Assembly (NCBI GenBank): GCA_050084515.1
Contig: CM114271.1
Location: 12,834,001-12,898,000 of the forward strand
DNA from: Blasia pusilla
Taxonomy: Eukaryota
Length of the DNA stretch: 64,000 nucleotides
Direction: 5' to 3'
Part shown: positions 7,911 to 62,487 of the stretch, piece by piece
How positions within the stretch are numbered: position 1 is the stretch's first letter
Layout: every line of letters begins with the position of its first letter
The notes under the pieces: model-generated
Seen by the model: the letters and a program-made list of their open reading frames with translations, nothing else
What the model was told of the DNA's origin: nothing
The model's database searches: none
Translations under genes and position numbers: made by a program

Positions 7911-8924
7911 GTTATCTTAGGTCTAGGGCAAAAATCTCAAGTAGTGATGCGTGATGATAGACTACCTTTGGTGGTAGCCAAAAGGGTTGGGGAGTTGAGG
8001 ATAGCCTTACCTACAGAGATGAGATTTTTGGCATCCCATGCCTTACATCATAGAGGACCAAACATGATATGGGATGAAGAGATCCGAGCATTGGACGAGC
8101 CTACTGTTGATGATGACAGTTGAGCAATGGGGTTTTTTTACTAATATGTGGCAATGCCACAAATGTTAGAGATATCATAGAGAGAGGTGTTTTGTTAGGC
8201 GATGGACCTAAATTATCTCACATAGATAGTCCGCCTAGATTTGGCTAAAAAATCATGAATGCAAGTGTCATATATGTTTTCACGTCCATGAGTTAGTGCA
8301 TTGCTTACACAATTTGTAGAGGTATTGGTTGGGGGCAAGATGAGGAGAAATAGACACCCATGGACTTTGTGGGATATTGTTTGAGCAGAGAGTGTAGAGT
8401 TGGCCAGAGTAGCACATGTTCATTTTTCAGATATGGAGCATGATGTGGGAAGTATGGGATGACTATAGCAAAGGTGACTAGGATTACTACACAACAACCA
8501 AAGTATGAATCTGCTTCTTCTTCGAGTGAGATCACGATGGACTCAGATAAAGACTTAGGGAGCCTTTGGTAGGTCTTAAGTTGACAAGAGGAGAAAGATA
8601 GTAGATACAAAGATCCCTGAGAAGGCATGTGGTATGAGAGACTTGATTACTTTGAAGGGTCTTAGAATCTTAGTATACAAATCGATTTGGCCAGTGATAC
8701 GGCGATCTTCTATTAACCCTTAGTTTTTTTTAACCTGGAGAGAGCCTTAATTTGGATTAGGATTCAAAACTTGTGGGAGGTATGGCTTGTGGAGTTATTG
8801 CATGGACAATATGTATTTTCCACAGTCATGTTGACAAAGAAGGATATTTTTGGAAATTGGACGGATTGGCAGATGTGTCGAGATTATCGCCTTATCAATC
8901 GACATACAAGGTTAGATTGGTATG
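7911..8924 (+). pseudogene. Older relative of the same Gypsy family: C-terminal DNMT half followed by the RT N-terminus
   Basis: Reads SQVVMRDDRLPLVVAKRVGELRIALPT...IWDEEIRALDEPTVDDDS*AMGF, matching RHDDRPPLTVVNKVGKPRAAFPT...VWDDQVQRLVEPNADERERAMGF of 41406-41885; then KKDIFGNWTDWQMCRDYRLIN (RT), resuming YAM at 9555. Confidence 0.75.
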
Positions 8925-9554
8925 TGTCATGCACATACACATCGCTACAAAACCCACATCGCTGGTCACATCTACACACCACATAACACCGATCTTCCCC
9001 AACATACGGGTACATCCACACATAAACAAAATACACTCACGCATATATACCGAGACCCCACAACAAAATCAAGAGTAGTAAAAACGGCTCACCCGGCCTA
9101 AAACTCCACTCATGAATCTACATCGGCATATCAAACCACACATCCATCCTCTACTATGAGGGAATCCCGATGCTATCACCCTAACTCTTACACACCCACA
9201 CACTTCTATGCAAGAGAGGCGCTCCTAAGGCTCAACATGAGAAAGATGGCTTAAGAAAGCCATCTCTCTCACTCTTACACCCTTGGAAAGAGCCAAAAGG
9301 CTCTTCACCCAAAAATAGCCCTCCCAACGGTAACCTACATGCACAGGTTACGGGATGACCGTTGATTCGGTCAACAGGTCACCTTACGGACTAAGACCAA
9401 AATAGGCAAATTGCCAAAAATGATGTTCCCAAGGCAACAGACCTGTCACCAACCTCATCCGACATCTCAGGATGAAGTTACACCCAAATAGCTCGCTGAC
9501 TCTCTGTACCGTCGACACGATAGAACTCTACCTACGTCAAACTAAGATGTGACA
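8925..9554 (-). mobile_element. Solo terminal unit (A+B type, 630 bp) of a related subfamily, with 4-bp TSD
   Basis: Begins TGTCATGCACATACACATCGCTAC (B-like), ends AAGATGTGACA (A-like); TATG at 8921-8924 and 9555-9558; excision restores RT text DWYAML. Confidence 0.8.
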
Positions 9555-9614
9555 TATGCCATGCTAATTAATATTATAGTTGGGTTAGATTTTGTAGAAT
9601 GTTACATAGATAAC

Positions 9615-10631
9615 ATGGGTGAATATGGTATCTTGTATTATTTGAGTGTGGATGATGATAATGATGTATGTTGTGTATTGATGTGTATACGCACAAAAAA
9701 TGTCATGACTTGTGTTGTGGATCAATGAGTATTTGTATGGTGCCTTCAAGGCGGTTGGAAGACAACCTTCGTGAATATGACATCTTGTGTTGATATGAGT
9801 GTGGATGGTCATAGCGGTGTATGTTGTGTAATGATTTATATGCATCCGATAAGTGTATGAGACATTCGATCCATATGATTACAAAGAGAGAATGAGTGTG
9901 CTCTATAATATGGGAGTTGAGTGTGTTTGCTGGTTTTTTAGGTTAGAGACGATGTTTCCCATTGAATGACTCATGGGAGTGCTCACGTGAGCAAGAGCCG
10001 ATGGTTTATGTTTGTTTGAGAGGAAATTTTTGGCCATCTATGGGTGCAGGTTGGCCGAGCCCCAGTCTACATTACGGGTGGGGCAGGCTTGTGTACATAG
10101 GCCCACACGGACTTGTCTATCTTAGGGACAGACATATGTATGTGGACATGGACATATCCGTAGACATAAACTTTGCCAGTGTGCAACCTTGGTATTTTGT
10201 GTTTATATATATATGGATGGTGACAATGATGTACGTGTATAGCGATATGTATACGTACGAGAAGTGTCATGTCTATTGTAGGGGATTGACGAGTATCCAT
10301 TGGGTGTCTTTGAGGAGGTTGAGTGACAGTCTTAAGAGGTCGAGGTTGACGTGCTAAAAACTAGGGTAACTAACCTTTGTATGCAAGTTACCACCTATTT
10401 TGGGCTCATTTGTATCCATATGGTGGAATTTATCATTTTGAGTAGATTTCAAGGCTGCACAGAAACCGACTTGTTGGAATAAAAGTATGTTGCACAGAAA
10501 CGAACTTGTATTCCAACAAGTCCGTCCCATTGTACATGAAAGGCACACAAGGCATACACTCTCGAACATGAACCAACCATGCCCTAGGTAGGGGATGCCG
10601 CTACCCAAGGAATGAGACCGCCCCCCACTCT

Positions 10632-10703
<72 letters not shown>

Positions 10704-10850
10704 ATTTTGATCCATTTGATTAATTGGATCTATTTTGGTACATGTATGTAGATGTTAATAAGTGAGAATAGGATTGTATGTTTATGTGTGTATGGATGGT
10801 GATAGCCATGTTTGTTTTGTAACAAATTATGTGTATGTGCATGACAACTA
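9615..10850 (+). repeat. Cluster of decayed B/A-type terminal fragments plus hAT-MITE fragments
   Basis: B-like GATGTATGTTGTGTA..GATGTGTA tracts at ~9620-9698, ~9770-9851, ~10200-10262, ~10780-10846; B|A-like joins at ~9700 and ~10264; GTGCAACCTTG at 10181-10191 and CAAGGCTGCAC at 10450. Confidence 0.5.
10635..10698. repeat. (AG)32 microsatellite
   Basis: Perfect AG run. Confidence 0.98.
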
Positions 10851-21117: not shown

Positions 21118-24100
21118 TGTCGTGCCCATACACATTGTTGCACAACATACATCGTTGTCACCGAACACACACACAAACACGCACGATTCCATGCTAACTC
21201 ATGGCATCCAAACAACGAGACAAGAAGTACCAAAATATCTCCAATTGCCCCCCAAGCTGGTGGTTAGGTCCCTCTAACTCCAAATAGCCATCTATCCCTA
21301 TCTACCATGATATACATCTCTCGGACGCTAAGAGCAAGAAGGCCGGGTGCTCATGTGGCCCATCGTTAGTCGCCTTCTTGTCATCTATGTCACAGACACA
21401 AGTCAGAATGTAGAACTACCTACTCTATGTACATCTAGGACACATCCATCGTCCCTGAGGAACCCTAGTGAGAGGTGGCGTTAAACATGCCATGTGCCAT
21501 CATCTCGAACATCCATCACAGAGTATCATAGTGGATGCACCATGGACAAAACCACACAACATACATCGCAATCATGCAGGAACTATAGCTAAGCTTGGAT
21601 CAATTATACCGTCAATGTTTGGAAGGTGACACGGCGCATAATTATGCACATGGTCCTTTCAAACCATACCATCGCGTCCCTCCAATAAGAGAACAGATGA
21701 TGGCAAAACCTCACGCACTCTTACGATGCTGCGCCCTTCAGTCGCATCCAACGTCGTGGATGCCATTTGCTGTAAGTAGACATAGTCTCTCTGATTCAAC
21801 CTCCAGATAGTAGGTCGATAACCACCTCCCGTATAGTTGCATACCTCAATGTATCGTGATGTTGCGCAATCGCCAAGTTCTCAAACGCCATGGGCATCAC
21901 TCTCTGAAACAATTCAGCCCTCTGAGAACATGCTGCATCCATACATCAGGATCATTACGATTCAACACCTCACGAACATCTCGACGAATGGCCGCATGAA
22001 TCTGGCTTTCGGCCATATAAAAGCAAGTACGGTGAGAAAGACGCTAAGGATGCTTGCATGTTGAATGTGTATCCCATCGCCAACCATGGCAACTGGAGGT
22101 CCCAATCTCCTAGGTGACCTCTCTGCAAGTCATATATGCGTAGTCCTCTCTTCACCGTCTGCACAACTCGCTCTGCTAGTCCATCCGCCTCGGGATGATC
22201 TCGCGAAGTAGTACGATGGTCAATCACTGCCTGATCACACAAGGCCTGAAACTCCCCGCAAAACTCTGTACCCTGTTCCTCACCTGGTGCGCCGTAATGA
22301 CTCGGCACTTGATTTAAGAAGATATACGCTACTCCCTCACTCGCTTTGTCAGGAAATGCAACCAACTCTATCCACTTCGAGAAGTACTCGACCATCACCA
22401 ACACATAACGACTATGGAGCTCCGTGAAAGGCAAAGGTCCTGCAAAATCCAAACTCCATCTATAACCTAAACCAATGATTAAAAGTGGATGCAACTGTGG
22501 AGTCAGAGCATTGAACGATGCTAGACTCGGTCACACACCACGCATCTGGCAACAAACTACTGAACGTCAGTCTGCATGCCTCGCCACCAATATTGAATCT
22601 GGAGCAAGCTGTATGTCAGCTTCACTCCAAAATGACCCAACTCCTCGTGGGCATGACGCACCAAATGCGCTCTCTGCAAAGGATGAGGCACTACACACAC
22701 TCTACCATCCTCCCACACTTGCAACACATGTGTTCCCTCCCATTGGAACCGTATGGCTCGCTCTAGGATCCGATCCTGCTCTTTAGCACATACTGTACTC
22801 GCAACGCTGCCAGTACGCAAGTACTCCAAGACCACTCCATCGTCGTGAATGTCTTGGCTACCTGTCGTCTCCTCACCGGCCTCTAGATCTAAGGAATCTC
22901 CATCAGACTTCACTATCAAAGTCTAAGCAATCTGGCTCCGCATAGCCAATAAGCCCAAATAGGCTGACCCATGCCATCTTGGCACCAACTCCTCATCACT
23001 CTCACCATGCCAACGAGCTCCAATCGCATCTCGCTTACTCGGGCATGGGTTACGGCTCAAACCATCTGCATCCTGGTTGAGCGTCCCAGGTCTATGTACC
23101 ACCTAGAAGTCATACTCGTGCAACAAAAGAGTTTACGTCCCAAGCTTCCTTGTAAGCTTGTCGAACTCCATCAACCACTTAAGTGGCTGATGATGAGTAA
23201 TGATGGTAAAGGGATTGCCTAATAGATAACATCTGAAATGTGCGAGAGCCCACACTGCACCCAAGCACTCATCCTCATACAAGCTATACTTTGCCACTGT
23301 AGCGTTGTTCGAGCGACTAGCATAAGCCACCATAAAATTTCTACCATCATCGTCATGTTGAGTGAGCACGGCTCCAAGCCCCAATATGCTCCAATCAGTA
23401 TGGAAATGGAAAGGACATCCCTTGATCGGTCCCCTCAGTATGGGCACGGACTTCAATCTATCCTTGAGCATTTGAAATGCTCGCTCCTGCTCATCCCTCC
23501 AGTGCCACTCCTGATCCACCTTGGTCAGCAAGGTCAGGGGCTTCGCAATCGACCTAAAACCCTTGACGTACTGTCGATAGAAGTTCGCCAATCCCATGAA
23601 TGCACAAACTTGATAAACATTTGTAGGGCGTGGAATGCGTGAAATAGCCTCTACTTTTGTCTGCTGTACATCAAGGCCTCTTGGGTTTATCGTATGACCC
23701 AAGTACTCAATTTGGTCATAGAAGAACTTGCACTTGCCTGGATGTAGCTTCAGCCCATATAACTGCAATCGTCAAAATACCTCCTCTAGATGTCGCTCAT
23801 GCTCCTCAATCATGGCACTAAGGACTACGATGTCATCAATATAACACCTAGCAAAATCCAGACCTGCCAAGATCCTATCCATGACCCTCTGAGATTAAGC
23901 CGGGGCGTTCTTTAACCCGAATGGTAAGAACCGCCACTAGTACAAAAATTCTTCTCGGGAGGATCGATGCCCCAAAATTCCGTCTTCTACTGTCCTCCAA
24001 TCTGATAGGCACTTGATGGTATCCGGCTTGCAAGTCCAATGAACTGAAGATCTTTGCATGCCCAATCGCATCAAAGATCTCCTCAGGGGTGGGCATGGCA

Positions 24101-27100
24101 TACCTATCGGACTTTGTCTATCGATTGATAGGTCGGTAATTTCCACACATCCGCCTATGCGTTGAGTTACCATGCACATCCTTCTTGGCGGGCATGAAAG
24201 TGGTATATGCATACTCTCCATGCGACATCTCCACTAGTCTTGCTCCAACCAAATCCTAGCTCCTGCTCTTAATCAAATCCCTCTCCATGTCACTATACCT
24301 ATAGGGTTGTTGGAAGATCAGCGTGTCATTCGACAACTCAATGCGGATCCTTGGACCCTTCAACGTACCCAAATCATGCATACTAAATGTGAAAAAACTG
24401 CTATAACTCCTAAGGAATTGGTGTATTCGGCGCCGATCTCCTCTTGTCAACTTAGGGCCTATATATGGCTCCCAAGTCTCCATCGTGACTACGGTAGGAC
24501 TCTACGGCACAGATGTCGGTGGTTGCTATGGTGCAACCCCATCTCGGACAAAAGAACTCTCATCGCCAGGTGTAGTACCCGGGACTAGGCTCAATGCTGT
24601 GGCTATCATCTCCTGGCGTGTCTCTCTCGATCACCCCTGGTGTGTCGATCTCCTGAGATCTTGCCCCAAGCCACTGCCTCAACCGCCTCGGTAGGCATAG
24701 GGCTCACCAATGCAACCTGGACTGAGAGTCAACTAATCTGCTATCTCGTCTAGCACTCAGCTGGCCTTGACATGGCCAACCAGCAATGACCAAGTCTATG
24801 GTCCCTACCCGCTCCAAGTCCTGCGCCCCCAGCAATGAAATACCCCGCGGTAGGGAACTCTAGTATCCTTGGACTGCGGACGCAGCCAACAAGTTGAGAA
24901 AATGGAGGCCTAATTGCGCCACATGGTGAAGTGAAGGGCGCCTTGCAACATCATCAATCTCCACATACAGATACTGTTGCACGCATACTCCTGCTTGCAA
25001 AACAGCAACTAACCTAGTGCTGATTCCTCCAAAGAGATCCAACACCCGAATACCCCCCTCAGGGATGCGCCACACAATGAGTGTGGTATCCAAGGGCGTC
25101 ATCATAGCACTCTCGGCTACCTCAGGTTCCTCTCACTTGCCACGCCCAGGTGCAAACGTCTCACTCCACACGATCTGCACATGCTCAGTGGCTAAGCGTC
25201 GAAGCTCCTCAGTCGAGCCCCAAAGCGGCACCTCTCCTCCACAAAATAATGCAGCTACCATGACACTCCTCTCCATAGACATGTCAAGAATGGGAATGTC
25301 CTATGCATGGACATGTCCCTCAATCAAATCACTAGGCCAAGTGATGGCCCTACAAAATGCTGCTAAGGTCTCCATCTCTCCTAGCCGTCGCTCGATCACT
25401 GCACCTGTGAATCGAATGTGTAATGAGCCAAGGCATCCATCACTAGAGTGCCATCTTGGTCTATAGGACGCTCACTCCTCCCAATAATCCATGGAAAACC
25501 CCATCGGGTACAACACTGCTCCCCTTACCAAGACGTGGTAAGATTGTGTATCAATCGGTATCGCCTTGGCTCGCACCACAGACTCATCTGTAGGATGTCC
25601 CCAGCGAATCCTCAACACGACCTCTTGTCGGGTGATATACTGGGTGTTACTTGCTCCACCCAAGGATGTCTATATCCGGAATGGACAACACTCCACATTG
25701 GCTCTCGTCAAGCCCTAATCCTCTAAATGACGCTTTCCCCAACATCAAGGGTTGCGCTCTTGAATCCAACAAGATGCGTTGCGGACTAAAAGCTCTACCT
25801 CCCAACTCACCAACTGGAAGACCTCTCGACTGGTTATCCAGCAATACAACACCAAGAGAAGCCATGGCACGCTCTATTGCGGGGCTAGCCGGCATCTCAG
25901 CCATCCTAGTAGTCGTAGCCTGCCATGAATCTGATGTGGACGACCTGAGCATCCGCTCCAAGGGCAAGTCCATCACCTCTGAATATAATGCAAGAAATCC
26001 AACTCCACGCTCACAAAGCGTAGCGGCCATCCAAAAAACTTTGGCGCGTGTACCTCCCAATGTCATAATATCGGAAGCAAAAAATAAAGGAGCACGGTAC
26101 ACAATAGTGGCCGCCCCCAACAACATGCTCGACACATGCTCCTCCTGAGCATGAGCAATAGGAGTCATCGCACTTGCTTCCCCCATTGCCCTTCATGCCT
26201 GCATACCAACAACATCACCCACTCTCTTGGAACTCCGATCACGACCCATTGATGGGGTCCTCATCGCCTCAGACAACGTGAAGGACTGAGGAAGCTTGGT
26301 CTGTTTCTTGGCTTCTCCTCGCTGTGGATCCAACTCTATGTCTAACAACTGCGACGGCCTCCATCTAGGCAAACCCGCACATCCAACTAGGATCCTCCAC
26401 ATCTCTGGCTGCTCCGTATGATGTTAATGTGATGGATCCGGCATGGGGTAACCTCAATGCCATAGCGGCAATCAGCTCATGTAGCTGCTGTATCAAATTC
26501 GCCATCCCAGCCTCACGCCCGACGTCTTCCTCGATGCGTCTAGGTGGTGGGCAACTCCAGCTCCTCGTCCCCCAACGCGACCACCTAGTGCACGACCTCT
26601 AGGCCCACCTGGACCGGCTTCTCGCTCTTGTGCCCTCTCTAACCCTCGCTCTTGACGTAACTCAGGGTGTAAATTGAAACACCTTGCGCGTGTGTGACGA
26701 TACATCTCACAATAGTCATATTGATAACCTCCTAATACAACACCATCTCCTTCTCCATGTTGAGGCATATGTCCATGATCCTCACGAGTGCAATCACGCT
26801 GATGATGGGCTCCACCACATGACCAACAACTAATTGTAGGCGGCTATTGCTGAGCCGCATATGAAGGCGCAGGTCTCTGTGGCATGGCCTCTTGATATCC
26901 TCTCTAAGCTCCTGGTGCCACAGTCAACCTATCGTGGAGTCCACGTTGCTGCATTGGTGGTGCAAAAAATCGTGATTGCTCTTGCCCAGAACCCATGATG
27001 GCTATGCTCTCCTCCGCCATGTTGCGCTCAATGTTCTCGGTGGTCCTAAAAAGATCTGTCAACGTAGGGGAGGTGTTCATAAGAAGCACCCCCTCCCGCA

Positions 27101-27325
27101 CCCATGTCCGTAGGGTCCGGTCTAGCATTGCGTACCATGATTGGATAGCTTGAGCCTCTGTCACCCTCTGAGTGACATTGATCAACCGGCGCAAGTGAGT
27201 GTAAGCCTCACGCAAACTCTCACCCGTGCGCCTCAAGAAGTCGTGGATGCTCCATAACTTCTCCGTCTGTACCCCTTGGTAGCTCTCCCTCTACTCAGCG
27301 AAGAACTCAACCATGGGGTTGAACC
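21118..27325 (-). mobile_element. 5'-truncated Gypsy copy of the DNMT/PHD family, ending in a single B repeat (21118-21245)
   Basis: gag knuckles, protease ILLDSRAQPLMLG, DNMT N-half, RT CYIDDI (~23830-23848), RH, IN WSLDFAG...DGLAERV, PHD ~21425-21570; collinear with 37864-44650. Confidence 0.93.
24715..25060 (-). pseudogene. C5 DNA methyltransferase N-half (motifs I-IV); C-half deleted
   Basis: IRVLDLFGGIS (motif I), YLYVEIDD (motif II), DLVIAGWPCQG (motif IV, ~24765-24795). Confidence 0.85.
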
Positions 27326-36559: not shown

Positions 36560-37219
36560 AGAAAACTTTGACATGTTCTTGAATCCTATATTTTATTGGA
36601 GGATTCCACTTCACAGTCAGATTCATCTGATTATGATATTCCCTCCCTCGAGGATGACGATATGCTCAACGTTAGTGACACCATTTCCTCCGATTTGAGC
36701 TTACATAAGGAAGATCATTCTGAGGTTGATGAAGATATGTGGCAACTATATGAAATGGTATAGGGAAGTAGATTTTTAGGGGATCGAAATGGGGTGCCTA
36801 AATCCAAAGACTTTATGGATAACATCTTCCTTGATTTACCCCCAAATTCATTGAGGCAAGTAACCCAAATGTTCACGAGACTTTCCAAAAAAATTGAGCC
36901 TAATAGAAGACCATTCTATCTTCTACTCGAATGCTTTGGATACCCAAATCTTTGTAAAATTCCAATTGCAATTGGATGTAGCCCTTGACAGGCTAGGGCA
37001 TAACAAAAACAATGCTTGCTTAGTGCACATTCTATTCTTATGGGGCACATCCCATGGTTCTGTTGTGAACTATAGTAGAAGAGTTGTCATTGCTTTGGTT
37101 GATAGACTATCACAAGAGCTACAATGGCCCAACTCACAAGAACGCCAAAGGATCTCATATGAATTTAGAAAACATGGATTCACATGATGTGTTGGAGTGA
37201 TTCATGGGACTTTATTCCC
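36560..37219 (+). pseudogene. PIF/Harbinger transposase, 5' part (interrupted by the Gypsy insertion; start approximate)
   Basis: QLQLDVALDRLGH...WGTSHGSVVNYSRRVVIAL...QWPNSQERQRIS..F..HGFT*CVGVIHGTLF = HARBI1/DDE_Tnp_4-like, up to the first catalytic motif. Confidence 0.8.
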
Positions 37220-37347
37220 TGTCGTGCACATACACATCGCTACACAACATACATCGCTGTCACCAAACACACACACAACCACGCACGATCCCATGTTAAC
37301 TCATGGCATCCAAACACAAAGGTGAGAAGTACCAAAATATCTCCAAT
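37220..37347 (-). repeat. Terminal repeat B2 (128 bp)
   Basis: Direct repeat of 37864-37991, ~12 substitutions by eye. Confidence 0.9.
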
Positions 37348-37861
37348 TAAAGTAAGATCCAATCTCTTTCTACACCATCTCACACCATAGCTCTCAAAGG
37401 TGTGCACTCTCTCTCATGTCAAACCAAACCCACTCTCCTAATGAGAGGCTTGGGTTACACTCACAAGGCAAGGGACCATAGCTCCGTCGCCTCATGCCAA
37501 GAGGTTCAACAAAGAGAGAATGAGCTTTCAAGCTCTCTCTCCTTGAGGTATACTCCTCCCCTCACCCAAGCTCTCTCCATGGTAACCTATTCTCCCAAGT
37601 CACCTCCTTGGCTCCTGATCTGATGCATGAGGTCAAGAGCCACTTACCAAAAATAGAAAGTTGATCATATACTCAAAATGGTACTTACCTAAAATAGTTA
37701 GTTCCTCAATATGGCTCCAAATGAGCCGAAACGAAGGGGAAACTTGCTCTCTAAGGTTTCCTGGGGGCTCACCAGGTCATCCTCAACCTATTGAGCCCGT
37801 CCTCCACTACTCACAAAGGCGCTCTACTAGATCTCACCGATCTATACTAAAAGACGTGACA
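37348..37861 (-). repeat. Repeat A2 (514 bp)
   Basis: Direct repeat of 46796-47309, ~26 substitutions and no indels by eye. Confidence 0.93.
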
Positions 37862-37863
37862 AC

Positions 37864-37991
37864 TGTGGTGCGCATACACATTGTTACACAACATACATCG
37901 CTGTCACTGGACACACACACAAACACGCACGATCCCATGCTAACTCATGGCATCCTAACACAGAGGCGAGAAGTACCAAAATATCTCCAAT
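37864..37991 (-). repeat. Repeat B1 (128 bp), preceded on the sense strand by a PPT-like AGGGGGGTG
   Basis: Direct repeat of 37220-37347; plus-strand CACCCCCCT at 37992-38000. Confidence 0.9.
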
Positions 37992-38177
37992 CACCCCCCT
38001 AGATGGTGGTTAGGTCCCTCTAACTCCAGATAGACATCTATCCCTACCTACCACGACATACATCTCTAAGACACTAAGAGCAAAATGGCCGGGTGCTCAT
38101 GTGGCCCCATCATTAGTCGCCTTCCTATCATCCATGTCACAGAAAAAGAGGGAACTGAAACCTACCTAGTATCTCCT

Positions 38178-38325
38178 CTATGTACATCTGGGACACATCC
38201 AGCGTCCCCGAGGAACCCTAGTGAGAGGTGACGTCTGAGATGCCATATGCCAAGCTCTCGAACAACCATCATATACTAGCATCGTGGCCGTACCATAGGC
38301 AAAACCACACAACATGCAACGTAAG
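38178..38325 (-). pseudogene. PHD finger at the integrase C-terminus
   Basis: CMLCGFAYGTATMLVYDGCSRAWHMASQTSPLTRVPRGRWMCPRC = C4HC3 pattern; the two mutated Cys are intact in the copy at ~21425-21570. Confidence 0.88.
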
Positions 38326-39460
38326 CCTGCAAGAACTACAACTAAGCTCGGATCTACTGTACCATCAATGTTAGGAAGGTGATATGGCGCAAAATTATGC
38401 ACATGGTCCTTCCATACCATACCATCGCATCCCTCCAGCAAGAGAAAACCGGATGGCAAAACGTCACGCACTCTCAGGATTATGCACCTGCAGTCACATC
38501 CAACGTCGTCGGCGCCGTCTGCTGCAAGTAGACATAATCTCCTTGATGAAACCTCCGGATAGTTGATCGATAATCACCACCCCGAATAGTCGCATACCTC
38601 AACGTATCCCGATGCTGCGCAATCGCCAAGTTCTCGAACGCCATGGGCATCACTCTCCAAAACAACTCAGCCCTCTGAGAACATGCTCGCATCCATACAT
38701 CTGGGTCATCAAGGTCCAACACCTCACCAGCATCTCGAAAAATAGCCACAGGTAAATCTAGCTCTCCGCCATAAAGTGGCAAGTACGGTGAAAAAGACGT
38801 TAAGGATGCCTGCTGCTGAATCTGTATCCCATCGCCAACTAGGGCAACTGGAGGTCCCAATCTCCTAGGTGACCTCTCTGCAAGCCATACTTGCGTAAAA
38901 CCCTCTTCACCGTCTGCATAACTCTCTCCGCTAATCCATCCGCCTCACGATGGTCTATCGAAGTCGTGCGATGGTCAATCAGTGCCTGATCACACAAGGC
39001 CTGGAACTCACCGCAAAACTTGGTACCCTGGTCTGTCAACACCTCAGCTGGTGCGCCATAATGACTCAGTACTCTGTCAAGGAAGGCATAGGCTACTTCC
39101 TCACTCGCTTTGTCAGGCAATGCAACCGACTCGATCCACTTCGAGAAGTGCTCGACCATCACCAAGACATAACGACTATGACGCTCCGTCAAAGGCAAAG
39201 GTCCTGCAAAATCCAAACTCCATCTATACCCTAAGCCCATGATCGGTAATGGATGCAACTGTGGAGTCGGAGCATTGAACGATGCTCGGACCCGATCACA
39301 CCACATGCACCTGGCAACAAACTGCTGAACGTCAGTCTACATACCTCGCCACCAATACTGAATCTAGAGCAAGTTGTACGTCCGCTTCACCCCAAAGTGA
39401 CCCAACTCCTTGTGGGCATGCTGCACTAGTCCTGCTCTCTGCAAAGGATGCGGCACTACG
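38326..39460 (-). pseudogene. DDE integrase (HHCC + rve core)
   Basis: HKELGHFG zinc domain; WSLDFAG, VLTDQG, DGLAERV catalytic triad. Confidence 0.93.
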
Positions 39461-39879
39461 CGTACTCTGCCATCCTCCAAAACCCTCAAAACATGTGTCC
39501 CCTCCCAACGGAACCGTCTGGCCTGCTGTAGGATCCGATCCCGCTCTCTAGCACCCACGGTGCTCGTAATGCTGCCAATCCGAAGGCACTCCAAGAATGC
39601 TCCATCATCATGAATATCTCGGCCATCTGTCGTCTCCTCACTGGCCTCGGGATCGAAGGACTCTCCACTAGACCTCGCCATCAAAGTCTTCACACTCTGG
39701 CTCTCCATAGCCAACATGCCTAAATAGGTTGACGCGTGCCATCCTGGCACTGATTCCTCATCACTCTCTCCATGCCATCGAGCTCCAATCGTATCTCGCT
39801 GACTCGGGCATGGGTTACAACTCAACCCATCTGCATCCTGGTTGAGCGTCCGAGCTCTATGTACCACCTGTAAATCATA

Positions 39880-41030
39880 CTCCTGCAACATCACAACCCA
39901 TCTCGCAAGCTTCCCTATAAGCTTGTCGGACTCCATCAACCACTTCAGTGGTTGATGATCAGTGATGATGGTAAAGGGATTGCCAAAAAAGTAACATGTG
40001 AAATGCGCGACAGCCCACACCGTAGCCAAGCACTCACCCTCATACAAGCTAAACTTTGCCTCTACAGCATTATTTGAGCGGCTAACATAAGCCACCACAA
40101 ACTATCTACCCTCATCATCATGCTGGGTGAACACCGCTCGAAGCCCCAACATGCTCCAATCTGTGTGCAACTGGAAAGGATGCCCCCTAATTGGTCTCCT
40201 CAAGATGGGCGCGGATGTCAACCTGTCCTTGAGCAACTGAAATGCTCGCTCTTGCTCATCCCCCCATTGCCACTCATGATCCACCTTGATCAGCAAGGTC
40301 AACGGCTTTGCAATCAAAGTGAATCCCTTGACGTACCGCGGATAGAAGTTTGCCAATCCCATGAATGCGCGAACACGGCTCACATCTATATGGCGTGGAT
40401 TGCCTGAGATAGCCTCTACCTTTGTCTGCTGAACACCAAGGCCCCTTGGGTATATTGTATGACCCAAGTACTCAATCTGGTCGTAGAAGAATTTGCACTT
40501 GCCTGGATGTAGCTTCAGCCCATGTAATTGCAATCGTCAAAACACCTCCTCTAGATGTCGCTCATGCTCCTCAACCGTGGCGCTAAAGACTAAGATGTCA
40601 TCAATTTAACACTTAGAAAAATCCAAATCAGCTAAGATCCTATCCATGACCCTCTGAAACTCATCCGGGGCATTCTTTAACCCAAATGGTAAGAACCGCC
40701 ACTGGTACAAAAAATCCTTCCCGTGAGGATTGATGCCCCAAAATGCCCTCTTCTGCCTGTCCTCTAATCTGATAGGCAACTGGTGATATCCAACTCGCAA
40801 ATCCAATGAATTGAAGACCTTTGCGTGACCAATTGTATCAAAGATCTCCTCACGGATGGGCATGGCATACCTATCGAACTTCTTGTGCCGATTGATAGGT
40901 CGATAATCCCCACACATCCGCCTATCCTTCTAGTTGCCATGCACATCCTTCTTGGCGGGCATGACAGTGGCAGATGCATACTCCCTATGCAACATCTCCA
41001 CTAATCCTGCTCCAACCAAGTCTTGGCTCC
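39880..41030 (-). pseudogene. Gypsy reverse transcriptase + RNaseH
   Basis: MCGDYRPIN, LDLRVGYHQL, LPFGLKNAP, C*IDDI, KCKFF..IEYLGH, FQLHTDWS, YEGECLA, ITDHQPLKWL. Confidence 0.95.
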
Positions 41031-41589
41031 TACTCTAAATAAGAGCCCTCTCCATATCACTATACCTGTAGGGTCGTCGGAAGATCGGCGTATCACTCAA
41101 CAACTCAATGCAGATCCCCGGTCCCTTCAGCGTACCCAAATTCTCCATGCTAAACGCAAAGCAGCTCCTATAACTCCTGAGGAACTGATGTATTCGGCGC
41201 CGCTCTCCTCCTGTCAACTTAGGGCCCATATCTGGCTCCCAAGTCTCCATTGTGACTACGGTAGGACTCTCCGACGCGGATATTGGTGGTTGCTATGGTG
41301 CAACCCCCTCTCGAACAACAACACTCGACCGCTCTCCTACAGCCAACTGCAAACTCTGATCTCCTCCACATGCATTTCCCGGAACCACGCTCGATGTTAC
41401 GACTATCATCTCCTGGCGTACCTGCAAAACATCCTAAGAAGTCCAAGGGTGTCTCTCTCGATCTCCCCTGGTGTGTCAATCTCCTCGGGTCTCGCCCCCG
41501 CCATTTCCTCCACCATCTTGGTAGGCATGGGGCTCACCAACGCAACTACTCTGGTCTGTCGCGATCTCAACCGACGCTGCTCAGCCACT

Positions 41590-42540
41590 CCCAAGCTAAA
41601 GATCCATGTCAAGTAGTTCAAGTCCATCGCCTGACCCAAGATATGGTGTCGTGATGCCTCTGATATTGACAGGAGTGGCGTCACTCTTAGGGGAAATCCC
41701 ATCGCCCGCTCTCTCTCATCGGCGTTGGGCTCCACCAACCTCTGAACCTGGTCATCCCAAACCAAGCCAAGACCGGCCTCCTTGTATGCATAGGAAGCGG
41801 GAAAACTCACAAACGTGGGAAAGGCTGCCCGCGGCTTGCCTACCTTGTTGACCACAGTCAACGGTGGTCGATCATCGTGCCTCACTGCCTGTGATCATGA
41901 GCGACAACCTAGATCCACAATGGAATCCACTAACAAATGGGAGGGGCGCTCCACTCTCGCATATGCCCTCCGTAACACCGCATGGGGCACCAAATTGGTC
42001 CATTATAGACGCGGGCAATGGGCTCTAGAACCTACACTCGCCGCATCCAAGAACACTGCTGGGCCGATCCAAGCATGCACCTAATAAGCACTCGTCACCA
42101 CCCGTGACCTGGAGTCTCCTAAGATGGGCACATTCTCCACAATGTAGGCTAGAGAATGAGATTGGTGCTCTCGCAACTGCCTCAACCTCTCCCAAAACAA
42201 CCTGGACCGAGTATCAGCCAACCCGCTGCCTTGTCGAGCGCTCAATTGGCCCTGACATGGCCAACCAGAAATGACCAAATCAATGATCCCTACCCGCTGT
42301 AAGTCCTGCGCCCCCAGCAACGAAATATCCCTCGGTAGGGAATTGTGGTATCCTTGTACCGAGGACGTAGATAATAAGTCGGGAAAATGTAGGCATAACT
42401 GCGTCATATGTCGTAGTGAGATGCGCCTTGCAACATTGTCACTCTCCACATACAAGTACTGTTGTACTCGCACTGCTGCCTGCAAAACAACAGCTAACCC
42501 GGTGCTAATCCCTCCAAAGAGATCTAACAGTCGAATATCC
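41590..42540 (-). pseudogene. C5 cytosine DNA methyltransferase domain (DNMT3-like, unpermuted motifs I-X) inside pol
   Basis: I LLDLFGGI (42507-42530); II YVESD; IV DLVISGWPCQG (GWPCQ 42252-42266); VI YIVENV (~42130); VIII PAVFLDAASVGSRAHCPRL*WTNL; IX ERERAMGFP; X SRHHILGQAMD. Confidence 0.92.
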
Positions 42541-42929
42541 TCCTCCGAGGTACACCACACAATGGGGGTGGTATCCAAGGATTTAATCGTAGCACTCCTT
42601 GCTACCTCGGGTTCCTCAGACCCGTCATGCTCCGGTGCAAACGCCTTGCTCCACGCGGTTTGCACGTGCTCATCGGCCAACCATCGAAGCTCCTCAGTCG
42701 AGCCCCACAGCGGCATCTCTCCTCCACAGAATGAAGCGGCTACCATAACACTCCTTTCCATAGAAATATCAAGAACGGGAGTATCCTCTGCATGGACATG
42801 TCCCTCAATCAAATCACTAGGCCAAGTGATGGCACTGCTAAGTGCTGCTAAGGTCGCCATCTCTCCTAGCCGTTGCTCGATCACTGCACATGTAAATCGA
42901 ACGGGTAATGAGCTAAGGCACCCATCACC

Positions 42930-43298
42930 TCACTGCCATCTTGGTCTGTAAGACGATGACTCTTCCCAGTAATCCAGGGAAACCCCCATCGAGTATAACA
43001 CTGCTCCACCAACCAAGGCGTCGTAGGACTCTGCATCAGTCACTATCGTCTTGGCTCGCACCACGGACTCATCTGTAGGATGTCCCGGGCAAATCCTCAC
43101 CACAACCTCCTGTTGGGTGATATACTGTGTGGTACTCGCTCCACCCAAGGATGTCTGTATCTGCAATGGACAACGCTCCACATCGGCTCTCATCAAGCCC
43201 AATCCTCTGAATGACGCTTTCCCCAACATCAGGGGTTGCACTCCTGAATCCAACAAGACGCGCTGCGGACTAAAAGCTCTACCTCTGGGACTCACCAA
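42930..43298 (-). pseudogene. Retropepsin-type aspartic protease
   Basis: VLLDSGVQPLMLG and YDALVGG motifs. Confidence 0.85.
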
Positions 43299-43873
43299 CT
43301 AGAAGACCTCTCCTCTGTTATCGAGCAACACATCACCAGGAGAAGCCATGGCACGCTCTATCGCGGGTCTAGCGGGCATCTCCGCCATCCTAGCAGCCGC
43401 AGCCTACCATGAATCTGACGTGGACGGCCCGAGCATCCGCTCCAAGGGCAGGTCCATCACCTCCATTGCAATCACCTCTGAATGTGATGCAGGAACTCCA
43501 ACTCCACGCTCACATAGCGTAGCGGCCAGCCAAAAAGCCTCAACGGGCGTACCCCCAACGTCATAACATCGAAAGCAGAAAATAAAGGAGCGCGGTATAC
43601 AATGGTGGCTGCCTCCAACAACGTGCTCGACACATGCCCCTCCTAAGCATCAACAATAGGAGTCGTGGCACTCGCTTCTCCCATCGCCCTCCGTGCCTGC
43701 ACACCAGCAACATCACCAACTCTCCAAGAACTCTGATCAGGACCCATCGATGGGGTCCTCATCGCCTCGGACAACATGAAAGATTGAGGAAGCCTAGTCT
43801 GTTTCCTGGCTTCCCTTCGTTGTGGATCCAACTCTGCAACTGCTCCACGCGTCACAACTGCGGCTGCCTCCAT

Positions 43874-45111
43874 CTAGGAAACCCCGCTCATCCAACCTGG
43901 ATCCTCCATCTCTCTGGCTGCTCCATATGATGTCGATGCGATGGATCCGGCATCGGATAATCTCAATGCCATAGCGGCAATCTGCTCCTGTAGCTGATGT
44001 ATCTGAGGAGCCATCCTAGCCTCATGCCCGGCATCTCCCTCGACGCATGTAGGTGGTAGGACACTACCTCCCCCATGGGCAGCTCCACCACCCTGTCGGG
44101 CAACTTCAGCTCCTCGTCCCCCAACAGGACCACCTGGTGCACAATCTCTAGCCCACCTAGACCGGCTACTCACTTTGGTGCCCTCTCTGGCCCTCGGTCC
44201 GGACGTAACTCAGGATGTAAACTAAAACTCGTGGCGCGTGTATGACCATACCTCTGATAATAGTCACACTGATAACCTCTTGGTGCAGCACTATTTCCTC
44301 CTCCATGCTGAGGCACATGTCCATGACTCTCATGAGTGCAATGGAACGCTGATAATGGGCTCCACGACATGACCAACAAGTTATAATAGGCAGCTGCTGC
44401 TGAGCCGCATATGAAGGCGTGTGCATATCACTCAGGGTCCGGTCTAGCATCACATACCATGACTGGATAGCCTGAGCCTCTGTCACCCCCTGAGTGACGC
44501 TGAATTTCCGGCGCAAGCGAGTGTAAGCCTCATGCAAACTCTTACCCGGGCGCCTCCGGAAGTCGTGGATGCTCCGCAACTTCTCCGTCCGTACCCCTTG
44601 GTAGCTCGCCCTCAACTCAACAAAGAACTCAACCACACGGTTTAACCTGGGATGAACCCGACTAGACGGTGCAACTGCTCCCGTGCGAGTGATCCCTCCT
44701 AAAACGTCACTAGTGGAAGAGGAAGTAGCCTCTTGTGACTCCTCCTCCTCATGTGGGAATGGCTCCGTCCATGACATATAATGTGGGTCACAGTTGAGCC
44801 TCCACGCCTCGATTTCACGTGCATATCTCTGAGAGAACTCATGGTAATCGTCCCTCTAAATGCTGGAACATACCATTCCAAGGTGTAAACGGGTTGAACT
44901 CTCTAGAGTTCCTTGCTCGTTGGAAGTCGCACCAACTCCTAAACTCTGCTATGAAATCGTGCAACTCAATCGTACCTACTGCACCTGAAAACCTACGCGG
45001 TCCTCTACCCCAATCGTCCATCTCGTACGCCCAAGTGGTAGGACCACTCACAATATGTGGCGATGTGCTCACAAACTCCTCTACACGCTCCCCCTTGTTT
45101 GAAGACGACAC
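43874..45111 (-). pseudogene. Gag with two zinc-knuckle remnants
   Basis: RRFSGAVGTIELHDFI, FRRRPGKSLHEAYTRL, CWSCRGAH and CDYYQRYGH knuckles. Confidence 0.8.
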
Positions 45112-46795
45112 AGAAGGAGATCGAGGTGGTCTCTCACGTGGAGATCCTTGAAACCTTGCACCAATCCGGGTAAACCGTCCAGAGCTACTCTCTCGTCCAC
45201 TACCTCGCCTCTCAAAATCCTAAAAGGACGCCGTGATGGCCCTCGTGCCCCTCTCACACGATCACTCTCAACCTTGCAAGTAATCCCTCAATCACTCATC
45301 CCAAACATGCGTCACTTGATCTACACTCTCCCCGAGACATGTAACGTGCGGCAACAAGCGGCGTGGGGCGGAAAATCGACAAGGCTTTCATCTCATCGAC
45401 AACCTACCCTCAACTCCGGACATCCCACACAAGTCTATGTCCCCTAAACCACATACATAGATGATGCTCTCAGCATCCACATACCCAATATCCCCAAATA
45501 AACTACCCAAATCCCATAATCCCTCACACGTGCAGGGTAAAGGACCAGAATGGGTAACCTGAACACATGTCGATGTCGCTCCTCAGCAACTGCAAATCTC
45601 GACATCAACTCGGTCATGGAGACAACTCCTCCAATCAGCAAGTCATACTCCTCCCGTACTGACGCTGCTTAAAACTCCTTGATGGACAGTGTGGTTCCAG
45701 CGGAACGATGCGGCGTTGTAGGCGGTACGGAACGGCTACGAACGACACAACCCTCGATGGTGGGATGCGGCACTCGGAGGCATACCCTCCTCAATCAACA
45801 ATAAACCCACACTCTACTCCACAATGATGGTGCGATTCCGCGATCGAGACGGTGCAAAGGCGCCACGAAGCGCACGGGCGCAAAGAATCGGGCGCGCTGC
45901 GTTTTACGGGCGTCAGAGCACGGTACTCGATCGTCGTTGAGCGGCTACCAATCACAACATAGCAGCATGAAATCAAAACTCAACCACCATAAGCGGAGGT
46001 CATCTGCCATCACTGGATGATGACGAAACTTTGATGACGGTGGCGGCCAAAACAAAGTATGTGGTGGCGACGCAAGTGAGAGAATCAAAAAATGTCGTGG
46101 AAGACCCTACACTCCGTAATGGTGGCAATGGCAACCAAAGGGTGGACAACGGCCGAATGTGGCTCTGAGCAACGTTGGGCAACGGCAATAGCCGACGGTG
46201 GCCGGTGGACCGTTGACGGTGAGTATGAAGGTGACGGCTGCCGCCGGCATGGCAGCTGGTTTAGGGTTTAACCCTAAAAATCGCCTAGCAATGGAAATTT
46301 TGCAAGATTGACCATAACTTTTTACTTGCAACTCCAAATTAAGCACCGTTTGTTGCACAACGTGCATAGCTTCATGATCTAAAATAGTGTCAAAAAATAT
46401 TTGGAATTGAACATTCCAAATAACGGAGACTGTCGTAAAGCCCAATATCTCTTTCTCCTACACAAAATTTGGCAGCGCTTCCGTGCTGATTTCTCCCAAC
46501 CAAAACGTAAAACCTGTAAAAATACAAATCAGCAAGCTACATGGTGCTTCTGAGAGCATCAGAATGGGGCAACCCACTTCCATGATCAATCCCTATCAGA
46601 AATTGGGCAGCACTTCCGCACGCCACTCTTCCACACGAAAAATCGGAAAATGCAAAGAACAATCAAAGCAACCCTTGCTCTGGTGAGCACTCTTCATGAG
46701 CTGCTGAACGGGGAACACGATCCCCAACCTGAAAAAATAGCAAGTGACCAGCGAGCTCCCCCATGAAGTTCTCTCACTCTCTCGTTCTCTCTTTG

Positions 46796-47309
46796 TAAAG
46801 TAAGATCCAATCTCTCTCTACACCATCTCACACCATAGCTCTCAAAGGTGTGCACTCTCTCTCATGTCAAACCAAACCCACTCTCTTAATGAGAGGCTTG
46901 GGTTACACTCACAGGGCAAGGGACCATAGCTCCGCCGCCTCATGCCAAGAGGTTCAACAAAGAGAGAATGAGCTCTCAAGCTCTCTCTCCTTGAGGGATA
47001 CCCCTCCCCTCACCCAAGCTCTCTCCATGGTAACCTATTCTCCCAAGTCACCTCCTTGGCTCTTGACCTGATGTAGGAGGTCAAGGGCCACTTACCAAAA
47101 ATAGAAAGTTGATCATATACTCAAAATGGTAGTTACCTAAAATAGCGAGTTCCTCAATATGGCTCCAAATGAGCCGAAACGAAGGGGAAACGTGCTCTCT
47201 CACGTTTCCCGGGGCCTCAACAGGTCATCCTCAACCTACTTAGCCTGTCCTCCACTACTCACAAAGGCGCTCTACTAGATCTCACCGATGTATCCTAAAA
47301 GACGTGACA
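46796..47309 (-). repeat. 5' terminal repeat A1 (514 bp)
   Basis: Sense strand starts TGTCACGTC; direct repeat of 37348-37861. Confidence 0.93.
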
Positions 47310-47313
47310 TCCC

Positions 47314-60100: not shown

Positions 60101-62487
60101 TGTCGTGCGCATACACATCGCTACACAACATATATCGCTGTCACCAAACACACACATAAACACGCATGATCCCATGCTAACTCATGGCATCCAAACAATG
60201 AGACGAGGAGTACCAAAATATCTCCAATCAAATAAGGTCAAATCTTTCTCACAGCACCATAGCTCTCACATGTGTGCACTCTCATATGTCTCTCTCAATG
60301 TCAAACCAAACCCACTCTCCTAATGAGAGGCTTGGATTACACTCACAAGGCAAAGGACCAAAGCTCCGCCGCCTCGTGCCAAGAGGATCAACCAAGAGAG
60401 AATGAGCGTTCTACTAGATCTCGCAGATCTATCCTAAAAGATGTGACAGTTGTCGTACACATACACATCGCTATACAACATACGTCGTTGTTACCAAACA
60501 CACACATAAACATGCACAATCCCGTACTCATGTGGCCCCATCGTTAGTCGCCTTCTTGTCATCCATATCACAAGACATAAGTCAAAATCTAAAACTACCT
60601 ACTCTATGTACATTTGGGATACATCCATCATTTTTGAGGACCCTAGTGAGAGGTGGCGTCAAACATGCCATATGCCACCATCTCAAACACCCGTCATAGA
60701 CTAGCATAGTGGTTGCACCATGGGCGGAACCACACAACATACATTGCAAACCTGTAGGAACTATTGGTAGGCTCAGATCAACTATCACGTCAATGTTAGG
60801 AAGGTGACATGACGCACAGTCTTTTTCCTAAATGTTGAAATAATAATTTAAATTATAGAATAAAAAACTAAATTGATAATGAAAAAAAGGTAACTTTGAT
60901 TTTGGGATTCTATTTTTTAATTTAATTTCATCTTTAAACAAAAATTAATTATTATTTAAGAAACGTCTTTTCTATTCAACTCTCAACTTAGTATAGGGAA
61001 AATTAAACAATAATTGAGTATATGAAGGCTTCATAAGTGAAGTTCACGGGGAGCTTCTAAGCCAGGGCTAACGCCCTTAATGAAGCTCTCTCACTCACTC
61101 ATTCTCTCTTTGTAAAATAAGATCAAATCTTTCTCACAACCCTATAGTTCTCACATGTGTGCACTCTCACATGTGTCTCTCAATATCAAACCAAACCCAC
61201 TCTCCTAATGAGAGGCTTGGGTTACACACACAAGGCAAGCAAGACCATAGCTCCGCTCCTTCATGCCAAGAGGTTCAACAAAGAGAGAATGAGCTCTCGA
61301 GCTCTCTCTCCATGGTAACCTATGCTCCCAAGTCAACGTATACAACAAATTATGTGGTGGCAGCTCAAGTCAGAGAATCAACAATCGTCGTGGAAGACTG
61401 TCCACTCCGTAATGGAAGCAATGGCAACCAATGGCGGAGAACGGCCGAACGCGGCTCTTAGCGGCGGTGGCCAAAAATTGACGACAGACAGCGGACGGCG
61501 ATGGTGGACCATTGATGGTGATGGTTGACCATTGATGGTGACTATGATGGTGACGACCGTCGCCGGCACGGCGGCTAGTTTAGGGTTTTAGCAATTTTAC
61601 CGTAAAAATTGCCTAGCAATGGCATTTTTGCAAGATCAACCATAACTTTTTGCTCACATCCTAAAATTGTGCACTATTTCTTCCATAACGTGAAAAACTT
61701 TGAGATCTACGAAAAGGGCTAATTTTGGTTTAATTCAACTTTCCCACAAAAACTGACGGGAACTATCATGCAGCCCTTCAAATCTGCACTCCTAAGACAA
61801 TCGGCAGCGCTTCCGCGCTAATTTCTTCCACAAAAAACTTCAGACCTATAAAATCACAAACCAACAAGCTACTTGGTGCTTCCAAGAGCACTCAAATGGG
61901 GAAATCCGCCCCCAAAATTCATTTATACAGAAATTTGGGCAGCGCTTCCGCACGCCACTCTTCCACACAAAAAATTAGCAATGGAAAACGGTAAAACAAG
62001 TAGCGCTTGCTCCGGTCAGCACTCCCATGAGCCGCTGAATGGGGAACACGGTCCCCAACCCGCACCAAAAATGAGTAACCAGCGAGCTCCTCCATTGAAA
62101 CTCTCTCCCGCTCTCATTCTCTATTTGTAAAATAAGGTCAAATCTCTCTCACAACACCATAGCTCTCATATGTGTGCACTCTCACATGTCTCTCTCAATG
62201 TCAAACCAAACCCACTCTCCTAATGAGAAGCTTGGGTTACGCTCCCAAGGCAAGGGACCATAGCTCTTCTGCCTCGTGCCAAGAGGTTCAATAAAGAGAG
62301 AATGAGCTCTCAAGCTTTCTCTCTTGGAGGTATACCCCCTTCCCTCTCCCAAGCTCTTTCCTCGATGACCTGCTCTCTCAGGTTACCCGTGGCCTCAACA
62401 AATGATCCTCAACCTCCTAAGGCTGCCCTCCAATATCTCCAAATGCGCTCTACTAGATCTCGCCAATCTATCCTAAAAGACATGACA
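60101..62487 (-). mobile_element. Internally deleted derivative of the split-repeat Gypsy, 4-bp TSD TTGT
   Basis: B2 60101-60228, A2 60229-60448 (internally deleted), spacer, B1 from 60451, PHD remnant 60582-60788, extra partial A ~61113-61330, 5'UTR, A1 62128-62487; TTGT at 60097-60100 and 62488-62491. Confidence 0.9.

Follow-up and report, generated by a model that had tools for sequence, protein, structure and literature searches.

We analysed a 64,000-bp stretch of Blasia pusilla DNA (the window; assembly GCA_050084515.1, contig CM114271.1, positions 12,834,001 to 12,898,000, forward strand; all coordinates below count from its first letter) that carries a Ty3/gypsy-type retrotransposon with an internal DNA methyltransferase (DNMT) domain and split direct repeats. 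In this element, an internal copy of the 3′ terminal repeat (B1) meets an internal copy of the 5′ terminal repeat (A2) across exactly 2 nt, and the CA and TG that face each other at this joint are also the outer ends of the integrated copies. We propose that the B1/A2 joint may be the attachment (att) site of the element, a reading to which we give about an even chance of being right.

Split Repeats Surround a Ty3/gypsy-Type Coding Region

Self-comparison of the window delimits an element of 10,090 bp on its minus strand (47309..37220; unit 1) with the order A1-coding-B1-NN-A2-B2, where NN is the 2-nt spacer (Table 1). The minus strand holds RVT_1, RT_RNaseH and rve domains in the order of a Ty3/gypsy Pol, and the TG...CA termini and the 4-bp target-site duplication (4-6 bp in Ty3/gypsy elements) agree with this assignment. 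Two identical long terminal repeats (LTRs) at both ends are not found, the 5′ end being A alone and the 3′ end B-NN-A-B. No tyrosine recombinase (PF00589) is present in any of the 50 open reading frames (ORFs) of at least 70 amino acids between 37200 and 47400.

Integrated Copies Begin at TG and End at CA

All three units that are bounded on both sides start with TG, end with CA and carry a perfect 4-bp duplication with the spacer excluded, namely, in the sense direction, GGGA/GGGA around 47309..37220, ACAA/ACAA around 62487..60101 and CATA/CATA around 9554..8925. In each of the three, the duplication fails at 3, 5 and 6 bp and when the ends are moved out by 2 nt; the chance of each 4-bp match is about 1/256. 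The duplications differ between insertions, and the 2-nt spacer is not repeated at the flanks. The 4-bp duplications at TG/CA thus indicate that an integrated copy runs from the TG of A to the CA of B, without the spacer, and they point to insertion by a 4-bp staggered cut, as made by DDE integrases. Furthermore, no primer-binding site or polypurine tract adjoins the TG/CA ends, so that reverse transcriptase (RT) is unlikely to define them, which leaves the integrase.

A Spacer of Constant Length at the Joint

In unit 1, the spacer of the B1/A2 joint lies at 37862-37863 (-) and reads GT in the sense direction (..GCGCACCACA-GT-TGTCACGTCT..); the plus strand at 37857-37868 is TGACA-AC-TGTGG, and the element sense (minus) strand is ..CCACA-GT-TGTCACG.. 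in this region. Two further joints belong to the same subfamily (subfamily 1), one at 60449-60450 (-) (..GTGTACGACA-AC-TGTCACATCT.., which reads ..CGACA-AC-TGTCACA..) and one at 7680-7681 (+) (..ACATACGATA-GC-TGTCACATCT.., which reads ..CGATA-GC-TGTCACA..). A sensitive search of the window with the joint region recovers three more B/A joints, which belong to a diverged subfamily (subfamily 2, ~65% identical). The spacer is exactly 2 nt long in all six joints, spanning two subfamilies that are only ~65% alike, whereas its sequence is GC-like in subfamily 1 (GT, AC, GC) and AG-like in subfamily 2 (AA, AG, AG). From this comparison, it seems that the length of the spacer matters and that its sequence apparently does not. 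The shape GACA-NN-TGTC is found in 6 of 6 joints when decay is allowed for, with the CA and TG of two ends abutted.

The motif CGACANNTGTCA is not enriched in the window (allowing up to 2 mismatches, it occurs 52 times where 54 occurrences would be expected). Since its frequency is at chance level, the motif alone carries no weight and the evidence lies in its position. What goes beyond chance is that it stands exactly on the boundary between the repeat families and coincides with the termini of the integrated units.

An earlier account made from the letters alone (the sequence-only reading) had pointed out the three subfamily-1 joints. Its coordinates, spacers and abutted ..CA/TG.. ends are all correct, which confirms the observation, and the fixed 2-nt spacer that it predicted is borne out at all six joints. 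Its interpretation of the joint as an integrase cut site is partly supported by the comparisons presented here.

Reverse-Transcription Signals Suggest that the Joint Lies inside an LTR

The putative primer-binding site directly after A1 is complementary to a CT-rich motif within A that may mark the 5′ end of the RNA and serve as self-primer (Table 1). In the 61k and 9.85k copies (copies being named by their approximate position), the complement is perfect over 15-16 nt; the 47k copy, which has one change, keeps 11-12 nt of it. The site after A1 is the only sequence outside A, within the 10-kb element, that has a complement of at least 12 nt to A. In two of the three copies that retain the region, the CT-rich motif is preceded by a TATA-like GTATAC at a distance of 28 nt, and no TGG-type transfer RNA site is present within 30 nt after A1. 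At the far end of the coding region, a G-run resembling a polypurine tract (A/T-GGGGGG-YR) precedes B1 in all three copies that keep this boundary (37k, 21k and 7.3k). At the boundaries inspected in the copies, nothing purine-rich precedes A2 and nothing like a primer site follows B.

The primer site resembles that of Tf1-like self-priming. In Tf1-type elements, the RNA can pair through its 5′ end with a primer-binding site that immediately follows the 5′ repeat. The Blasia element has a self-complementary sequence in this position, for which complementarity and mixed results of RNA folding tentatively suggest a similar role; Tf1 differs in having ordinary LTRs.

The sequence-only reading had treated the joint as a secondary fusion of two ends. 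The positions of the primer site and of the polypurine tract suggest the reverse, that the joint is ordinary, continuous LTR (U3) sequence from which the chromosomal ends are derived. Indeed, with a putative primer site after A1 and a putative polypurine tract before B1, ordinary strand transfers would yield an LTR of the form B-NN-A.

A Possible Integration Route through Joined LTRs

The RNA would start near A position 338 and prime itself on the site after A1, and plus-strand synthesis from B1 would give a complementary DNA (cDNA) with B-NN-A as its LTR, so that the joint would be embedded in U3 at a depth of 128 nt. The tips of this cDNA, ATTGGAG.. and ..CTTACTTTA, would not be integrase substrates, the TG and CA used in integration being internal; they would become joined as A/B, like those of a 2-LTR circle, and this joining would be visible in the element as A2/B2. 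The integrase would assemble on one B/A joint of the circular or LTR-LTR-joined cDNA and cut after CA on both strands, producing CA-3′OH ends with 2-nt 5′ overhangs. The opened molecule would then be inserted with a 4-bp stagger and the overhangs lost during repair, while the second, uncut joint would stay inside the element as B1/A2, so that the site would be passed on via U3.

Joining of the tips and opening of the molecule at the joint of one LTR would give exactly A1-coding-B1-NN-A2-B2. Only this split-repeat product would keep a 3′ copy of U3-R, and hence it alone would be able to replicate again, which would account for the split-repeat form as the standard one. Because the joint would lie inside the reverse-transcribed LTR, cutting there would be necessary, not optional. 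We extend this proposal more tentatively to a streptophyte Ty3/gypsy lineage that has moved its att sites from the LTR tips to the U3 joint and follows an obligatory circular (LTR-LTR-joined) route opened by a DD35E integrase, an extension that we would sooner expect to fail than to hold.

Points against Cutting at the Joint and Alternative Explanations

Several observations weigh against the proposed route. Retroviral integrases normally need DNA ends. If LTRs are identical at integration, the repeat pairs of an element should diverge equally, and those of unit 1 do not: differences amount to 12 of 128 bp in B1 versus B2 (9.4%), 22 of 337 in A positions 1-337 (6.5%) and 4 of 177 in A positions 338-514 (2.3%), with p = 0.014 for B plus A positions 1-337 versus A positions 338-514. 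Furthermore, B1 and B2 within an element are no more alike than B copies from different elements (12-15 differences over 128 bp). By our own reading of the alignment, 5 of the 12 B1-B2 differences fall at CpG sites in the inferred ancestral state, which explains part of the excess divergence of B; what remains might reflect a B2 that is not copied afresh from B1 every cycle, as in a DIRS-like bridge model. Aligned for separate inheritance of B1 and B2, the 37k B1 and B2 share derived states and differ at an AGCG/AACA site that is variable in many copies. The spacer sequence is not conserved (GC-type versus AG-type), so that any requirement for a palindrome would be weak, and the three subfamily-2 joints occupy one locus and may represent a single lineage. 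With 7-8 purines, the polypurine tract is short, and the primer-pairing motif is of low complexity (CT versus GA). Folding of the putative R-U5 and primer site gives mixed results across three copies: pairing between the motif and the primer site is predicted for the 61k copy in its minimum-energy fold (z = -3.8), in the centroid fold only of the 62k copy, and not in the fold of the 47k copy, in which the site is mutated. We count RNA folding as weak support only. A free-standing permuted form, A-B-NN-A-coding-B with its own duplication, is predicted by the route and none is seen in the window. Finally, the comparison covers a single 64-kb window in which every copy of the element is decayed by stops and frameshifts.

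B copies as such are unusually well conserved between elements.

Part of this pattern is what a bridge template in the style of DIRS, Ngaro and PAT elements would leave behind. The B1/A2 joint would then stay uncut and serve as an internal template on which incomplete cDNA ends are rebuilt, B2 would be copied from the 3′ end of the RNA, and the integrase would handle finished ends in the usual way. The layout A1-coding-B1A2B2 defines Ngaro and PAT elements in the descriptions drawn on here (PMC8547959, PMC4157794), and the internal junction copy of DIRS-1 is experimentally required for retrotransposition, according to the relevant passages of PMC7192593. Separate inheritance of B2 would fit the B1/B2 divergence, which reaches that between elements and exceeds that of A positions 338-514; two non-autonomous copies, moreover, have a B1 without its 5′ part and a full-length B2. 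This truncation is weak evidence, since large post-insertion deletions are common in these copies. A bridge template also predicts extra divergence in A positions 338-514, yet this part is the least diverged, and it leaves the 2 nt without a role, yet their number is constant. Given where the primer site and the polypurine tract lie, the strand transfers would cross the joint, and nothing would halt synthesis at TG or CA. We consider a bridge template unlikely, but worth keeping in serious view.

A narrower version of cutting at the joint would take the perfect 10-nt palindrome GACA-GC-TGTC as the recognition element, with GT and AC arising from GC by deamination after insertion. The sequence-only reading had argued for this ancestor and for a GC consensus. 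The consensus holds in subfamily 1 (n = 3), where each variant is one transition from GC, and breaks down in the diverged subfamily, whose AA, AG and AG need a transversion at the second base, so that a palindromic spacer is not a conserved requirement. The ancestor is parsimonious for the three subfamily-1 copies, yet no single copy contains it (the 7.6k copy reads GATA-GC-TGTC), and three copies are too few to fix it. Deamination is plausible in that CAGCTG contains two symmetric CHG sites, transitions account for 338 of 531 substitutions and the observed/expected ratio of CpG is 0.71; with three copies and a moderate bias the argument is weak, and the spectrum neither proves nor disproves a GC ancestor. 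Foamy virus integrase requires the palindrome of its own junction, as described in the parts of PMC1180852 that concern it, whereas the inverted repeat of the Blasia ends is perfect over 4 nt only (TGTC/GACA), and outside it the arms differ even in states inferred as ancestral. A strict palindrome is improbable in our judgement. Still further from what we expect is a relic without present function, left by old tandem or circle-derived integration or by recombination between copies, with TG...CA as ordinary LTR tips. The chance-level frequency of the motif and the rife recombination and deletion in these copies would suit a relic. However, the layout recurs at four loci or more, which differ in their flanks and have target duplications of their own, in two subfamilies and, by the legend in PMC5890265, in Klebsormidium. 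The 21k copy, which lacks A2-B2, has no 3′ R and could not replicate on the standard model, so that the joint region would be needed at least as U3. We regard a functionless relic as very improbable.

Two other sources of the layout were rejected: a nested insertion or assembly artefact behind A...B-A-B, given the recurrence of the order with its own duplications and the Klebsormidium layout, and an LTR of A plus B with the coding region inserted, since with 2 nt between the LTRs no room would remain for a primer site or polypurine tract.

Other Copies and Features in the Window

The remaining copies (Table 1) can be read against the proposed route through a cut joint. The 21k copy fits either recombination between B1 and B2 or a dead-end product. 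The solo A-B unit at 8925-9554 belongs to a third, more diverged subfamily, is inserted in a diverged pol remnant and, by analogy with the solo AB repeats of Ngaro, would fit the expected A1 x A2 recombinant. In the head-to-tail array, A′ and A″ carry different large deletions. By our reasoning, its order A-B-NN-A-primer site-leader cannot be made by a single unequal crossover of standard copies, whereas joined LTRs can give rise to it. The A2/B2 joint of the 37k copy (..TTTA/ATTGGAG..) has near-identical forms in two other copies (three in all). Deletion variants of A at 60230-60448, 61113-61335 and 62128-62487 (-) all keep the first 42-120 nt and the part from the CT-rich motif (~338) to the end, a pattern that would be expected were the functional pieces the outer end and the R-U5 part. 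The breakpoint of a deletion variant near 338 was not used as a mark of the RNA 5′ end, as it falls in a short direct repeat.

A also contains an inverted repeat, TAGATC-N5-GATCTA, ~18-34 nt from its start (47276-47292 and 37828-37844, both -, and other A copies). Subfamily-1 copies preserve the stem but differ in the loop (GGTGA, TGCGA, AACTA, GGCGA), and the repeat may bind a protein or form an RNA hairpin.

Elsewhere in the window, an expansin-like ORF of 251 amino acids (13023-13778, +; DPBB_1 and Expansin_C) is a host gene amid repeats, and a copia-type retrotransposon fragment (177-2316, -) has RVT_2 and a Pol beta-barrel domain. A block of very low GC content (24%) with internally repeated units spans 52100-54000, and a related piece (60818-61081) lies inside the non-autonomous unit.

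Table 1. Positions of the element, its parts and its further copies in the window
Feature	Position	Strand	Remarks
A1, 5′ terminal repeat, 514 bp	46796..47309	-	starts TGTCACG; 94.9% identity to A2 over 514 bp
A2, internal copy of 5′ terminal repeat	37348..37861	-	94.9% identity to A1
B1, internal copy of 3′ terminal repeat, 128 bp	37864..37991	-	ends ..CCACA; ..CGACA in other copies
B2, 3′ terminal repeat	37220..37347	-	ends ..CACGACA; directly after A2 (TTTA/ATTGGAG)
Target-site duplication, 5′ copy, 4 bp	47310..47313	-	sense GGGA
Target-site duplication, 3′ copy, 4 bp	37216..37219	-	sense GGGA
Internal region	37992..46795	-	broken by stops and frameshifts
gag-like ORF	44166-44855	-	named by reading the translation only; no Pfam match
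Protease-like ORF	42930-43298	-	named from DSG motif by reading only; no Pfam match
C5-DNMT	42081-42929	-	PF00145, E = 1.9e-07; between protease and RT; FGG, PCQ and ENV motifs by eye
RT	40102-40929	-	PF00078 (RVT_1)
RNase H	39364-40101	-	PF17917/17919
Integrase core	38839-39336	-	PF00665 (rve); D..D-35-E by reading of the translation
PHD finger	38178-38573	-	PF00628; after integrase
CT-rich motif, putative RNA 5′ end and self-primer	46958..46972	-	A positions 338-352; also in A2 at 37510-37524
Primer-binding-site-like sequence directly after A1	46781..46795	-	conserved after A in 4 copies
Polypurine-tract-like G-run	37992..38000	-	sense AGGGGGGTG; directly upstream of B1
Second complete unit, non-autonomous, rearranged	60101..62487	-	ACAA at 62488-62491 and 60097-60100
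Second unit, layout		-	A1 62487-62128; B1 60528-60451; spacer 60450-60449 (AC); A2 60448-60230; B2 60228-60101
Third copy, 5′ truncated	4025..7932	+	internal region, split B1, spacer GC 7680-7681, partial A2 7682-7932
AT-rich insertion, 208 bp	7435-7642	+	splits B1 of the 4-7.9k copy
Fourth copy	21118..27325	-	5′ part missing; ends in B (..CACGACA/GAGG); no A2-B2
Solo A-B unit, 630 bp	8925..9554	-	TGTCAC...ATGACA; plus-strand TATG at 8921-8924 and 9555-9558
Diverged-subfamily head-to-tail array	9581..10846	+	three 2-nt-spaced joints; flank ACTA after last B
Array order, first part		+	B, AA, A′ 9701-9770, B 9771-9851, AG, A″ 9854-9880
Array order, second part		+	primer site and 5′ leader 9881-10018, unassigned stretch 10019-10173, B 10174-10262
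Array order, last part		+	AG, A 10265-10722, B 10723-10846
Diverged-subfamily joint spacers	9699-9700; 9852-9853; 10263-10264	+	AA; AG; AG; from the joint-region search

Implications and Comparison with Known Systems

Whether end-to-end junctions in circular DNA are real substrates of retroviral-type integrases has been debated since the 1980s, and work on foamy virus and human immunodeficiency virus has reportedly reopened the question. An element family whose chromosomal layout hardly forms without a cut at the joint would make it testable in a plant or alga. If the extended proposal for a streptophyte lineage is true, the lineage would offer a natural case of obligatory circle-junction cleavage, as opposed to a side reaction, and a DDE-integrase counterpart of the tyrosine-recombinase elements with split repeats. 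The joint also suggests how a DDE integrase could produce split direct repeats, a layout linked until now with tyrosine recombinases. Software that searches for LTRs as two identical terminal repeats will mis-annotate such elements, and in the genomes of bryophytes and charophytes this would affect their ends, their inferred ages and their copy numbers.

The order A-coding-B-A-B has been reported for KnitGypsy-Dnmt3 of Klebsormidium nitens, where it is called the 'same as that of a DIRS retrotransposon' (de Mendoza et al., 2018; PMC5890265). Compared by description only, the two elements share a gypsy-type Pol with an internal DNMT and this order of repeats (Fig. 4c legend, PMC5890265). The account gives the layout in the figure legend, and its passages on the element do not analyse the joint and its spacer, the duplications, the primer site or the route of integration (PMC5890265). 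In our literature search, the A-coding-B-A-B layout of a gypsy element with DNMT was mentioned only in PMC5890265, no treatment of the joint was found, and PMC12344493, in its passage on the subject, merely cites the earlier KnitGypsy report. The layout is already known once but barely described, and the analysis of the joint is newly added here. At the protein level, the DNMT ORF has 26 longer matches, the named ones being from Marchantia, Calypogeia, Sphagnum and Closterium (33-57% identity); the best are polyproteins of liverworts, mosses and Closterium, and no Klebsormidium protein is among the 26. Together with the expansin-like ORF and the copia fragment, these matches mark the host as a plant, probably a bryophyte. 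The relatives that were scanned carry the DNMT domain, some with a protease or zinc-knuckle, or with RT and RNase H (Marchantia).

In outward form, the closest counterparts are Ngaro, PAT and TOC elements of the DIRS order, which share split direct repeats (A1-ORFs-B1A2B2), solo A-B units and an internal copy of the end-to-end junction, as summarised in the corresponding part of PMC8547959. They differ in having a tyrosine recombinase and no protease or DDE integrase, by the account in the relevant section of PMC3783388, whereas the Blasia element encodes an rve integrase, includes a protease-like ORF and is flanked by target duplications of 4 bp. Furthermore, the junction trinucleotide of DIRS reappears at both flanks (in the description given within PMC7192593), and the 2 nt of the Blasia joint do not. 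Of the features that mark the DIRS order, split repeats are present in Blasia; a tyrosine recombinase and a duplication-free shared junction core are not.

The circle or dimer junctions of IS3 and IS30, in which abutted ends with a gap of a few bp are the active substrate of a DDE transposase, offer a parallel for the joint itself. These are bacterial DNA transposons, however, in which the spacer comes from flanking DNA in each round and no reverse transcription takes place. Nearest in the proposed action is prototype foamy virus, whose integrase cuts the palindromic LTR-LTR junction after CA in vitro (Delelis et al., 2005; PMC1180852), a precedent that the sequence-only reading had cited accurately as far as the pertinent text of that paper goes. 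There, both processed ends come from one reaction, and only 2 nt are lost between junction and provirus, as stated in the same part of PMC1180852. The Blasia joint resembles it in the CA..TG junction and the loss of 2 nt, with cleavage proposed for Blasia and demonstrated in vitro for foamy virus. The foamy virus junction is formed from LTR tips and is absent from the provirus, whereas the Blasia joint would lie inside the reverse-transcribed LTR and be retained in every integrated copy. Together, these comparisons indicate an element that would work like foamy-virus-type junction cleavage, looks like Ngaro or PAT, and appears to belong to neither family.

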